Assembly (NCBI RefSeq): GCF_006345805.1
Contig: NC_043004.1
Location: 66,092,001-66,156,000, forward strand
Origin: Octopus sinensis
Taxonomy: Eukaryota
DNA length: 64,000 bases
Reading direction: 5' to 3'
The position numbers were made by a program, and so were the translations under genes. Each line of letters begins with the position of its first letter. The first letter of the stretch is position 1. This document shows, piece after piece, positions 4,189 through 34,072 of this stretch. The notes beneath the pieces were generated by a model. The model was not told the origin of the DNA. It was given only the letters and a program-made list of their open reading frames with translations, and made no database searches.

Positions 4189-5559
4189 ATGTATGTATGT
4201 ATATATATATAAATTTAACAATATATGCATACAAATATATAGGTACACACATCCAGATACACATTATAAACGTGTGAATGTACGTATGTATGTATGTGTG
4301 TGTGTTTGTATGTGTACAGGTGTCTCTATATAATCAGAGAATCCTTCATGCTATCAAATATGGAATAACACCATACAACCAGATGAAAATATCCACATGC
4401 TCCTGCAATCATATATGCACAAGCCGAAGTGAATCAACACAGAAAAGAAGACTGTTATATCATTTAAGAGTCTATCTACTTAGGAGTTATTGTTGAGCCT
4501 TCAGGTAGTTCTTAACGACGGTTCTTTAAATGAGCAATCATAGTCTATTCACGACTGACAGTGGAAAGTAAACTTGCCGGGCATTTTTCATATATCCTAA
4601 CCAGATCGATAACTTCACACTTCGAAATATGAATGCGATAAAATTTGTCTTGATCAATAGTTAACAATTAGATTACTTGTAAATCTAGCAACTAAGACGC
4701 AACAGTCTTACATATTGAATCCATTTTCATAACAATTTTTACACACTCATACGATCACACATACGCACAAACACATACACACACACACACAGAATTGCAC
4801 ATAGTCGCGCACGCACCCATTCACACACATGTATGCATATATATAGAAAAGTCGCTTTTTCTCGGAGTCTCTCGCTGTATATATATATGTGAATGCGTAT
4901 ATATGCGCGTAGAAGGAGGCCTAAACTACGAGTAATGAAGGTGTCAGTTTTAGATTTTACCATTTTAAACGCAAATGGATTACTTCCCACTGCACTATGT
5001 GTGTAAATGAGTCTATATATACATGCATAGATACCTGCATATACATAGCAACATGCATATATATATACACATACACACATACGTATGTACCTATGCATGT
5101 ATGTATGTATGTATGTATGTATGTATGTATGTATGTATGTATGTATGTATATACATATGCATGTATTTGAGCGTGGTGTGAGAACGTATATGCTTATATG
5201 TTTAGAGTATACACATATACATACATATACACACATACAAACATATATATTTATATACATACGTGTGTATATCTAACTATCATATATATGCTTATATGCC
5301 ATATGTATAATTATGTATATAACTACCAGCATACAATAAAGGTCACAGTCTAACATATACACATACACACATAGGCAAATGGTAGCGGTCCCAAAATGTT
5401 TTGAACCTTTGACCAGTTTGACACAAGATAATTTCTCAAAGAGCAAGGGGGCATGTGCACAACCAAGTAAAAATCCATAATATATATTACAATTATTAAA
5501 TATTTAACACATATACATTACATATAGTTGCAATGCAAGAACACACTTAAAACTGCAAT

Positions 5560-5800
5560 ATTCGATGACATAGAATTAAAAGGTTTAATCTTACACCACA
5601 TACTGGTGTAGGCCCGCTGCCCAATATCTGAGCTCCTCTTAAATATGGCTTCAATGCTGGATAGTTTTTCTTCTTAATTCTCTTACACTGTATTGACCAC
5701 GTATTACTAGATTGAGAATGGTTTACTTCCAAGTGAGAAGTCAGTTTTGTGTGTTTGTGTTCTTTTGGATGCTTATAGATTGATCGAGGTGGACGTGTAT
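5560..5800 (-). pseudogene. Possible decayed Penelope-like GIY-YIG endonuclease C-terminal fragment
   Basis: Minus-strand peptide YKHPKEHKHTKLTSHLEVNHSQSSNTWSIQCK...KPY resembles the H..K...T.LS.H......WSI....KPY pattern of PLE endonucleases. It lies next to a hammerhead foldback. Judged by eye only. Confidence 0.3.
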
Positions 5801-6137
5801 TTATTTATGTAGATGTTCTTCTTCTAGATGTTATCAGTAAGGGGTTGTCTCACATGTTGCCTCATTTGAGCGGGGTTTCATAACTGGGAGAAATTAGCAC
5901 GAGAGAAAATGAAAATAGAGATTTCAGAGCATCGAATCTGTCTGTCTGTCTGTCTCTGTCTCTCTCTCTCTCTCTCATACATATATATATTATAATATAG
6001 CAATAATAAGCAGTAATTATATGAAGTATATGACATAAATTTAGAAATATAATCAAAGGGTATATATATATTAATATAATAATATATCTACTAAGGGATA
6101 TTAGTATATAACTACAAAAATTGGTAAGAGAAAAGGA

Positions 6138-6510
6138 TATATATATGTAAGAGATGGAGGTGGAAATAGCACAGAAGTACGTCTAAGGCTTTTCAATTGA
6201 AGAATAACTTGAATAAAAGTTATATAAAGAAGATATTACCGGTTTCACTGTATCTCATCTTAACAAATATCAGTAAACATTTATAAAAGTCTAATGTAAA
6301 AACAGTTTATCTTCTGCCCCGGGGTCAAGAGCATGCCTGAAGACTCCCATACAAAAGGCAAACTGTTTTTACTTCAAATTTTTATAATTTTTTTTTATTA
6401 ATATTTGATAAGATGAGATACATTGAAACCGGTAATATCTTCTTTATATAATATATCTCGTAGACTTAGCTATGTGCTATTTCCACCTCCATGTTATGTA
6501 TATATATATA
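6138..6510. mobile_element. Foldback element (inverted pLTR-like arms) flanked by (TA)n, carrying hammerhead motifs
   Basis: Perfect 20-bp inverted repeat 6154-6173/6473-6492 and imperfect ~100-bp inverted repeat 6220-6316/6351-6451. Confidence 0.85.
6401..6438 (+). ncRNA. Minimal type I hammerhead ribozyme, U3-A8 core variant
   Basis: ATAT-TTGATAA-GATG-agata-CATT-GAAAC-cg-GTA-ATAT. Stem I ATAT/ATAT, stem II 4 bp, palindromic stem III ACCGGT, GUA triplet. Confidence 0.6.
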
Positions 6511-6669
6511 TATATATATATATGGGTGTGTATATAAATATAAATATATAAATATATATATGTGTGTGTGTCTATGCATATATATATATATATAATAACT
6601 ATACATATATATATGTAAATATATATATATAAATATATATGCGTGTGTGTGTGTGTGTGTGTGTGTGTG

Positions 6670-6830
6670 CTTGAGTCTGTTTTTGTCCATACATCCGTGC
6701 TCGACAACCTGTGTTGGAGGGTTTACGCCCTGAAAACATCAGCGTTTCGGCAGAGGAAACCGATAGAATAAGTACCAGGCTTTTAAAAATCACAGATGTA
6801 TTAGATACATTTGTCAAACAAAAGGGATAA
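6670..6830 (+). mobile_element. 3' half of SINE family B, degenerate
   Basis: gacaacc..gtgtt..gtttacg..ttcggc...accgatagaataagtac matches 44470-44560. Confidence 0.65.
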
Positions 6831-7065
6831 AGGACATATAATTAGATTGTTTCATGTTGAACGTGATTATCTGTTAAGTAGAGTTTCTGGGATGTAATTA
6901 GTGAGTGGTTACCCCTTTAATATACTAATAAATTAATATTCTTCTATGCAAATGTTTGCATTTAGTCACACAATTCAGGCGGATTTGTTAACGGCATCAG
7001 ATATTTACAATTGCCATATCAGTAGAAATACTACATTCAGTAAAGTAATAATATTAAAATGATAT

Positions 7066-8017
7066 GGCGGGGAACTGGCCGAAACGTTAGCACGCCGGGC
7101 GAAATGCTCAGCGGTATTTCGTCTGCCGCTACGTTCTGAGTTCAAATTTCGCCGAGGTCGACTTTGCCTTTCATCCTTTCGGGATCGATTAAATAAGTAC
7201 CAGTTGCGCACTGTGGTCGATATAATCGACTTAATCCGTTTGCCAGTCCTTGTTTGTCCCCTCTATGTTTAGCCCCTTGTGGGTAGTAAAGAAATAGGTA
7301 TTTAGTCTGCCGCTACGTTCTGAGATCAAATTCCGCAGAGGTCGACTTTGCCTTTCATCCTTTCGGGGTCGATAAATTAAGTACAGTTACTCACTGGGGT
7401 CGATATAATCGACTTAATACGTTTGTCTGTCCTTGTTTGCCCTCTCTGTGTTTAGCCTCTTGTCGGTAGTAAAGAAATGGGTATTTAGTCTGCCGCTACG
7501 TTCTGAGATCAAATTCCGCAGAGGTCGACTTTGCCTTTCATCCTTTTGGGGTCGATAAATTAAGTACAGTTACTCACTGGGGTTGATATTATCGACTTAA
7601 TACGTTTGTCTGTTCTTGTTTGTCCTCTCTGTGTTTAGCCCCTTGTGGGGAGTAAAGAAATAGGTATTTAGTCTGCCGCTACGTTCTGAGATCAAATTCC
7701 GCAGAGGTCGACTTTGCCTTTCATCCTTTCGGGGTCGATAAATTAAGTACAGTTACTCACTGGGGTCGATATAATCGACTTAATATGTTTGTCTGTCCTT
7801 GTTTGTCCTCTCTGTGTTTAGCCCCTTGTCGGTAGTAAAGAAATGGGTATTTAGTCTGCCGTTACGTTCTCGGTTTAAATTCCACCGTGTTCGACTTTGC
7901 TTTTCTCCCTTTCGGGATCGATAAATTAACTACCAGTTACGCACTGGGGTCGATCTAATCGACTGGCCGCCTCCCACAAAATTTCGGGTGTTGTGCCTGG
8001 AGCAGAAAATAATATTA
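7066..8017 (+). mobile_element. SINE family A with four internal 183/184-bp tandem units plus a terminal unit
   Basis: Head ggcggggaactggccgaaacgttagcacgcc and B-box-like gagttcaaattc. Motif ggtattt(c/a)gtctgccg recurs at 7113, 7297, 7480, 7663, 7846. Central gactttgcctttcatcctttcggggtcgataaattaagtac resembles the Meta/MESC-type SINE domain (from memory). Confidence 0.9.
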
Positions 8018-8509
8018 GTAGTAATATTATTTATTCATGCCTTGCACTAAAGTAATATATTACAATGATAGCGCGGCTAAAATGAGAAGAGAACTAAATC
8101 TGTGCTTGTAGGAAAAAATGAACAGGCAGATGGAAGAGGTGATACTGGGGGGAAGGGTTTAGCGGTTTATTAATGAGGAAACCAAAGGCCAAGTGTGAAA
8201 GATGTTAGAATAGAGCAATGAAGAGAAAATTGGGAAACTCAAAAATGAAGAATGAAAAATGAAAAACGAAACGAGAAAAAATGTTAAAATACTATCTGAA
8301 AGAGAAAGAAAAGATTAAAACATTAGAAAATGTAATTAAAATGTATATGGAAATGAAAATAAAAAAGACGATGTGAAACAAAGGTATTAGTCTAAATATA
8401 TTTATATGAAAAGTGATCAATCAGGAGGTTGAGAAAACCCCGAAATATATGTTTTTTCGTATTTTCAAAAGTTTAGAAAGTTTAAAGGTTTAAAATGTAT
8501 GGAGATTAT

Positions 8510-32518: not shown

Positions 32519-32618
32519 NNNNNNNNNNNNNNNNNNNNNNNNNNNNNNNNNNNNNNNNNNNNNNNNNNNNNNNNNNNNNNNNNNNNNNNNNNNNNNNNNN
32601 NNNNNNNNNNNNNNNNNN
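32519..32618. other. Assembly gap (100 N)
   Basis: Run of N; different LINE classes lie on either side. Confidence 1.
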
Positions 32619-34072
32619 AAGTTCTGATGTTACTGTGTTTGATGGTGTCATTAATATCATTTATGTAAATGATGAAGAGAAGTGGGCCCAACACAGTGCC
32701 TTGTGGGACACCACTGCTGACTTTGGCTGGGCTGGATTTGACTCCTTCGACTACAACATGTTGGGTTTGTTAGACAGGAAGCACTTGATCCACTGCAGCA
32801 GCTTTCAAGTGACACCATATTGGACAGCTTTTTCAAAAGGATCTTATGATCAACCCTGTCAAGCCTTGCTGAAATCAAGGTAGATGACATCAGTGTGGAA
32901 CCCTCTCCCAAGGCTCATCAAATGTCATCAAAATGATGCAGTAGCGGCGTCAGGCAATCTCTTCCATGACGGAATCAATGCTGGTTGGGAGTTCAGCATA
33001 TTATGACTCTCAAAGAAGTGAGTTATACGCGATCTCAGCACTCTCTCAAATACCTTAATGATATGAGTGAGATTGGACGGTAATTCACGGCTAGCGATTT
33101 GTTTCCTTTTTTGAAAACTGGGACAACAGGCTGGGGACAACAGACTGGGATAGAAGGTCTTCTGGTATATATCCAGCATCCACTGACTCAGCCACATATT
33201 GGCTAGAGGGGATGCAAGTTGGTTTTGACACATCTTCAAGACACAAGCAGGGAACCTATCGGGACCTACTGCTGAATTATGCTTCATTTCCTTTATTGCT
33301 GCTAAGACATCAGGAGCGCCAAAGGTTATGTCCGATAAAGTGTATTGGGGAGTAACATCACTGATAAAGCCCCGATCAGTCATATCAGGAATAATGAAAA
33401 CAGAGCAATATTGTTTCTGCAATATCTCTCCCATGGTTTTGGCATTGTCTTGAAGAGTACCATTTTCATCAATCAGAGGGCCAACAGTAGAACCAGTGAC
33501 TCTGTGTTTTTTTGCAAATGAGAAGAACACTTTGGGATTGAGTTTGATCTTCTCAATGGCCCAGGCCTCTTCAGCTCTTCGCTGACTATTGATGATAGAG
33601 ATCATGTTGTTTTGGAGTTTATGTTTTTTTAATCTCTAGCGACGAGATGGCAGTCAGATTGGTGTGTTGCTGTTGAGAGTATTTCAGCTTGTTGATTTTT
33701 TGGTTAATTCTTTTAATTTTCCTGATGAGAGATTTTCTATTAATAGGGATTTGATACTTAGATTTGTTTGCAGATCTTAATGGGGTGTGTTTTGCACATA
33801 TGTTCGTAATGGTATCTACAAATGACTGCCAGGACATTTTGATGTTAGTGGGTGTGTATGTGTGCGTGAAGGACCAATCGACTTGTGCAAGATCATTATT
33901 GATCGCTTCCCAGTTTGCATTGTGGAAATCCATAGTGTCAAATGGATGAACAGGAGGGATGGCATTTGTTTTGCATTTTGGCCAGTGAAATCTCAGATCA
34001 CAGAGAACCATGTCATGTCGGAGAGTAGTGTTTTCTCCACTGCAATATTGTGGATAGCATCAGTGCGATGCT
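32619..34072 (-). mobile_element. CR1/L2/jockey-group LINE ORF2 fragment (end of APE, linker, RT N-terminal half), frameshifted
   Basis: LSD(H)DMVLCDL at the APE end, [68 protein letters not shown]. Confidence 0.92.

Follow-up and report, generated by a model that had tools for sequence, protein, structure and literature searches.

Minimal type I hammerhead ribozymes with short helices and a palindromic helix III are found in the pLTRs of metazoan Penelope-like elements (PLEs), as described by Cervera and de la Pena (2014; PMC4209133). The same source reports a covariant U3-A8 core, for which S. mansoni yields about 1,300 hits, lists the cores UUGAUAA and UUGAAAA in its supplement, and describes pairs of hammerheads on opposite strands, 100-700 bp apart, as well as a low activity of the dimers. 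Natural hammerheads with the C3-G8 to U3-A8 replacement, reported to be active, and palindromic stem III dimers of repeat-type ribozymes were presented by Perreault et al. (2011; PMC3088659), whose survey dismissed the majority of repeat-borne core variants as cryptic mutants; according to a summary in PMC6765202, such core variants may already have been reported by Lunse et al. For PLEs, the head-to-head architecture and transcription start sites within the pLTR were described by Craig et al. (2021; PMC8557442). In PAc, the Poseidon element of Anolis (Frangieh et al. 2024, PMC11167929), the tail is set by two internal start sites of reverse transcription, templates are mainly uncleaved RNA, no reads end at the cut site, and the protein is predicted to act as a dimer that nicks both strands.

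The window analyzed here, a 64,000-nucleotide stretch of the Octopus sinensis genome (2.72 Gb, microsatellite-rich), contains a foldback that we interpret, with a probability of about 0.86, as two head-to-head, 5'-truncated pLTRs of an old PLE family (family A) that carry an inherited U3-A8 hammerhead core, were likely co-inserted into a TA microsatellite and are likely inactive. This type of foldback has already been described in other animals, and the locus is a further example in element families for which no earlier report was found: a literature search that had most subscription papers and Repbase outside its scope returned no paper on these particular families. A PLE, the setting in which all features of the locus are known, went unrecognized in the preliminary description of this DNA. 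The parts of the foldback are as follows.

6137 to 6146, no strand: (TA)n run, left insertion boundary and likely target (from the sequence; other family A copies end in (TA)n)
6148 to 6345, minus strand: left arm, a 5'-truncated 3' end (pLTR) of a family A PLE (blastn to the natural copies L014 and L086)
6232 to 6271, minus strand: left minimal type I hammerhead with a U3-A8 core, impaired by A6>U, U11.2>G and a G10.1-U11.1 pair
6336 to 6346, no strand: head-to-head junction of the arms, adjoining the preferred 5' end of the family
6342 to 6496, plus strand: right arm, a 5'-truncated 3' end (pLTR) of a family A PLE
6401 to 6438, plus strand: right minimal type I hammerhead, predicted cut after 6434
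6428 to 6433, plus strand: ACCGGU palindrome (A15.1 to U16.1), predicted intermolecular helix III, invariant in all 7 aligned family representatives
6499 to 6523, no strand: (TA)n run, right insertion boundary and likely target (from the sequence)

In RNA folding, positions 6138-6510 form one long hairpin (-158 kcal/mol, z -18.4; none of 100 shuffled sequences was as stable), just as had been proposed for a read-through transcript. A contig of the sequencing run X18 covers 6137-6430, with 3 differences, and crosses the junction, which is thus real DNA and not an assembly artefact. The left arm starts ~77 nt upstream of the core and the right arm ~60 nt upstream, the latter with an internal deletion 3' of the ribozyme; a tail search found no 3' tail on either the left (6148-6345) or the right (6342-6496) arm. 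The arms agree at 49 of the 52 bases over 6401-6452 versus about 79% overall, and the higher likeness of the ribozyme block could be due to conversion, selection or chance. The window holds no PLE ORF detectable by tblastn and no end of the sister families B, C or D described below.

The right motif consists of stem I (AUAU/AUAU), the core UUGAUAA (U3 at 6405, A8 at 6410), stem II (GAUG/CAUU), GAAA, the palindromic helix III and the GUA triplet. Its sequence at 6401-6438 is as first described, and the predicted cleavage after A6434 (H17) fits the motif. The core boxes (N3-U4-G5-A6-N7-N8-A9, G12-A13-A14-A15.1 and U16.1-H17), together with a Watson-Crick pair between positions 3 and 8, are complete in this arm; in the inverted copy at 6233-6270, where the cut position would follow 6237, they are complete but for A6>U, and the U3-A8 core recurs along with one stem II change (U11.2>G), again as had been noted. 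The preliminary description overlooked a G10.1-U11.1 pair in both arms (C11.1 is present in 54 of 83 family copies) and the loss of the outermost pair of stem I from the right arm, where A6400 faces C6439. An Rfam scan of 5000-8000 (E<=10) gave no hammerhead match; all that it returned were microRNA and snoRNA matches below threshold, most of them located on microsatellites.

A 101-base query with the motif had at least 44 matches in the host genome, and a control with a reversed pattern had none; the motif belongs to a dispersed repeat and is therefore not a chance occurrence. A pattern with positions 3 and 8 left free matched 23 times, with U3 in all 23 cases, A8 in 21, and neither C3 nor G8 in any. 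The 104 alignments spanning the motif, with L084-L088, L105 and loci above L106 left out, reduced to 83 distinct family A copies; 74 of these have U3-A8, none has C3 and one has G8, and U3-A8 is also found in 29 of the 34 copies retrieved by queries that did not include the ribozyme. U3-A8 is thus the consensus and the inherited core of family A, within which the two positions show no covariation. The earlier interpretation of the two changes as covariation rather than decay holds in its second half only: no C3-G8 copy was found among the 83, so covariation within the family is not seen, but U3-A8 is not a product of decay: the family has it as its consensus, sister families with covarying stems have it fixed, and it is a natural variant according to PMC3088659 and PMC4209133, the last point having been made already in the preliminary description. 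The presence of U3-A8 in both arms, on the other hand, was wrongly taken as evidence, since both arms come from one element family and their agreement indicates only common descent.

Family A copies share sequence far upstream of the motif. One of them, L086 (~3.1 kb), combines an inverted terminal copy (pLTR) and a broken ORF with a CA-rich 3' UTR, the hammerhead and the 3' terminus; at its ends it matches both arms of the window, with which it shares the hammerhead and the 3' end. The broken ORF matches residues 19-778 of an intact 784-aa family B protein (32-58% identity in pieces). GIY-YIG was above the Pfam cut-off in L085 and L087, 6 of the 8 fragments searched had no Pfam match above the cut-off, an NCBIfam search gave nothing above the cut-off, and most of the best family A endonuclease matches are interrupted by stops. 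Open frames of up to 789 aa occur in families at a greater distance (about 51-55% identity). In all three sister-family ORFs RVT_1 was above the cut-off, a CX4CxxC linker and YLDDC are present, and two cysteines lie within the GIY-YIG motif; the DKG motif was found in two of them, the third being 5'-truncated. In L086, L093 and L119, the hammerhead sits in the pLTR of such an RT-GIY-YIG element. These are defining features of EN+ PLEs, and the parent accordingly appears to be an EN+ PLE of the Neptune/Nematis type, an assignment based on shared features.

Several likenesses to the EN+ PLEs of PMC8557442 concern the protein (an RT with a C-terminal GIY-YIG domain, DKG, a CX2-5CxxC linker and CCHH-type cysteines) and others the insertions (5' truncation, an inverted copy at the 5' side, an optional 30-40 bp tail and (TA)n targets). 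Unlike full EN+ PLEs, the locus in the window consists of two pLTR fragments with no ORF. The ribozyme itself resembles those of PMC4209133 in being of type I, with short helices, a palindromic helix III, a pLTR location, U3-A8 and an opposite-strand partner. It differs from their typical, although not universal, form in that G10.1 directly follows A9, with no extra base separating position 9 from 10.1; stem II has 4 bp here and helix III is ACCGGU, and ACCGG was absent from the two supplementary files of that study that were searched. The mollusc rows seen in the same source have C3-G8, whereas U3-A8 is fixed here across several families. The replacement of C3-G8 by U3-A8 and the palindromic stem III are also common to this motif and the hammerheads of PMC3088659. 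Non-LTR retrozymes, as presented in bioRxiv 10.64898/2026.07.22.740005, are likewise pLTR-derived, non-coding and equipped with a type I hammerhead, but they are head-to-tail tandems with ribozymes on the same strand; with only two copies, head to head and on opposite strands, the locus was ruled out as a non-LTR retrozyme. Nor does the locus fit a MITE or foldback DNA transposon, which would have constant terminal inverted repeats and common internal sequence unrelated to any RT element: junctions vary, and each arm is an RT element's 3' end.

Sister families provide the evidence for selection on the fold. Family B has the core UUGAAAA and stem II GGUC/GACC, with 1,751 exact matches in the genome and U3-A8 in all 100 of the matches listed. 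Family C combines the core UUGAUAA with stem II GCAU/AUGC, GCAA in place of GAAA (A13C) and a 2-bp stem I, and family D has the core UUGACAA, a U-U at 10.1-11.1 and a GUU triplet; one further variant is located in L112. ACCGGU is kept in all sister families, most of whose motifs were found by eye and via an ACCGG anchor. Among 7 aligned representatives, U3-A8 is invariant, and 9 of the 12 pairs, including 9/9 of the helix I and II stem pairs, changed on both sides. The covariation score was 0.627 versus 0.205+-0.053 for shuffled alignments (0 of 500 reached it) and at most 0.143 for slid alignments; as the 7 rows are related, include both window arms and supplied the structure itself, this result is support and not a probability. 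In active elements, selection has acted on the hammerhead fold.

Some further observations on these families may be recorded here. Family B (L119, G000:C12:27284000-27293900; L165-L174) is present in 4.4-kb tandem units with an upstream ORF, L166 contains two family B head-to-head hairpins in tandem, and a satellite array of ~19-bp units (L122:4280-5560) directly follows a family B 3' end. Family C (L120, G000:C1:169663000-169669000, minus strand; L127-L140) is young, with near-identical copies and an open RT-GIY-YIG frame, and its deviations (A13C and the 2-bp stem I) are fixed in all copies seen. Family D (L121:5780-5835; L141-L154) is also young, with its deviations fixed in all copies seen.

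The head-to-head arrangement is recurrent. In family A it was found at 17 of 42 distinct loci, with break points that vary among the loci (-19/-6, -54/-52 and -70/-4, for example), and 25 of 56 arms have their start between -77 and -64 relative to the core, as has the left arm of the window. In family B, 8 junctions were obtained from 10 regions chosen as close pairs; in 7 of the 8, one arm ends at +95 and the other at +129, that is, one tailed arm is paired with one untailed arm, and in 6 both arms start between -137 and -121. Genome-wide, 155 family B matches leave the element at -141 to -130, and about three quarters of the 100 such matches listed were judged by reading to be true junctions. 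The 5' ends of short family B copies gather ~135 nt upstream of the core. By contrast with about 21-28 5' ends per position at the preferred end, there were 3.5 at the cut site and 3.6 in the control (6 ends at the cut site and 4 in the +10 control window, with 3 internal deletions at -22), small counts from anchors that differ in subfamily coverage. Genome-wide 5'-end counts for family B, a young family, thus show no excess at the cut site and place the preferred 5' end upstream of the ribozyme. Many family B 5' junctions begin with G; a cap-derived origin of this G was rejected, as it is templated in long copies (112 matches, with G in all 100 of those listed). The preferred 5' end is a candidate transcription start. 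The lack of a cut-site excess and the tail-defining ends agree with PAc (PMC11167929), an element of another clade with a C3-G8 core that was studied by an in vitro assay, whereas the present evidence comes from genomic counting.

These patterns can be accommodated as follows. In the once-active element, tandem pLTRs would put two sense hammerheads on one RNA, which would pair via ACCGGU and undergo slow cleavage after GUA, possibly assisted by protein; uncleaved RNA would be the template of most integrated copies. The element's protein would nick (TA)n and make two short cDNAs, running from internal start sites to the preferred 5' end. We infer that the two cDNAs were joined head to head, and the insert would have decayed later.

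Two other routes to such a hairpin were weighed. The foldback might have formed after insertion, by snap-back or by ectopic recombination at a short ACATGT palindrome, and several junctions (L009, L035 and L045) are indeed centred at or near ACATGT. However, family B junctions cluster in the same manner at -141 to -130, where the aligned sequence differs, 7 of the 8 family B junctions pair one tailed with one untailed arm, and past the (TA)n runs the host sequences on either side of the window hairpin show no mirror symmetry; post-insertion formation is accordingly considered unlikely. Alternatively, the entire 360-bp hairpin might have spread as a non-autonomous unit, MITE-like or akin to a hairpin SINE. 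The abundance of hairpins of similar size, reflected in the 17/42 and 25/56 counts above, would fit this option, but the locus-to-locus variation of junctions, the existence of solo arms and of arms that reach into the ORF, and the frequent combination of an arm with a 3' tail and an arm without one make it a highly improbable explanation. The joint insertion of two truncated pLTRs is the reading that we retain.

The other question is whether the hammerheads still work. The right arm could be a functional U3-A8 ribozyme on a host or read-through transcript, acting as a trans dimer with the antisense arm as an off switch. It retains every core letter, PMC3088659 reports in vitro activity of U3-A8 ribozymes, and the predicted energies are -8.3 kcal/mol for the ACCGGU self-duplex and -158 kcal/mol for the hairpin. 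The arms being on opposite strands, any one transcript would hold one sense ribozyme and its antisense mask, and the arms would be unable to dimerize in cis. The proposed dimerization via ACCGGU fits intact family copies: the intact copy L021 and family B co-fold as dimers in which stem II is kept and ACCGGU and stem I form the intermolecular helix, whereas the window arms, including the right one, are predicted to keep the ACCGGU duplex only and to lose both stems. Stem I of the right arm consists of four A-U pairs and stem II opens with a G-U; the predicted energy of the hammerhead fold is +1.7 kcal/mol for the right arm and +3.8 for the left, versus -2.3 for L021 and -5.4 for family B. Even as dimers, the minimal hammerheads of PLEs cleave weakly according to PMC4209133. 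Among the 34 copies from ribozyme-free queries, 14 have an intact core and 12 an altered G12, in nine cases through G>A at a CpG. Raw divergence is lower in the core than in the flanks (8.7% vs 15.5%, p=3e-4), which counts against neutral decay; we tentatively attribute this difference to noisy alignment of poly-T and to flanks that differ between subfamilies. At non-CpG positions, 23 of 370 core sites and 43 of 490 adjacent non-core sites are changed (p=0.20), and family A copies are read as decaying near-neutrally. Finally, no host gene was identified in the window, as none of its 64 non-repetitive ORFs had a Pfam match, a search that would miss short exons; one putative RNA run compared with the locus gave short pieces only, which may come from other copies. 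The window hammerheads are probably inactive now, parts of a dead copy, and residual trans cleavage by the right arm, whose core letters are all intact, is improbable.

A more speculative proposal concerns the lineage as a whole. Its hammerhead may have been kept mainly as a scaffold for RNA dimerization and protein binding rather than as a cutter, with ACCGGU-paired RNAs feeding a protein dimer that generates the head-to-head inserts. This proposal draws on the fixation of U3-A8 and ACCGGU while the stems turn over, on the success of two young families with changes expected to harm catalysis (A13C and the 2-bp stem I in family C, U-U and GUU in family D), and on copy 5' ends showing no preference for the cut site; we regard it as doubtful. 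If it were true, the protein dimer would make two short cDNAs, one tailed and one untailed. With their intact ORFs, these families represent a natural mutational series for the role of the PLE hammerhead, that is, cutting RNA or holding it together. Searches with CUGANGA or Rfam miss such motifs, even though family B alone has 1,751 exact matches, and the finding matters modestly because standard motif searches overlook these hammerheads.

Elsewhere in the window, at positions 7113-8038, a 183-bp unit is repeated four to five times in tandem, with 91-93% similarity between the copies, and looks SINE-derived; a similar sequence is found in L084. Two long non-repetitive frames of 235 and 146 aa, without a Pfam match, lie on the minus strand at 32931-34059, and a 100-base N gap spans 32519-32618. 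Other repeats, at L092:2834, L088:9344, L085:2745 and L117, combine a core of the C3-G8 or CUGUNGA type with GAG/CUC as stem II and a palindromic ACGU, and are probably further PLE ends.
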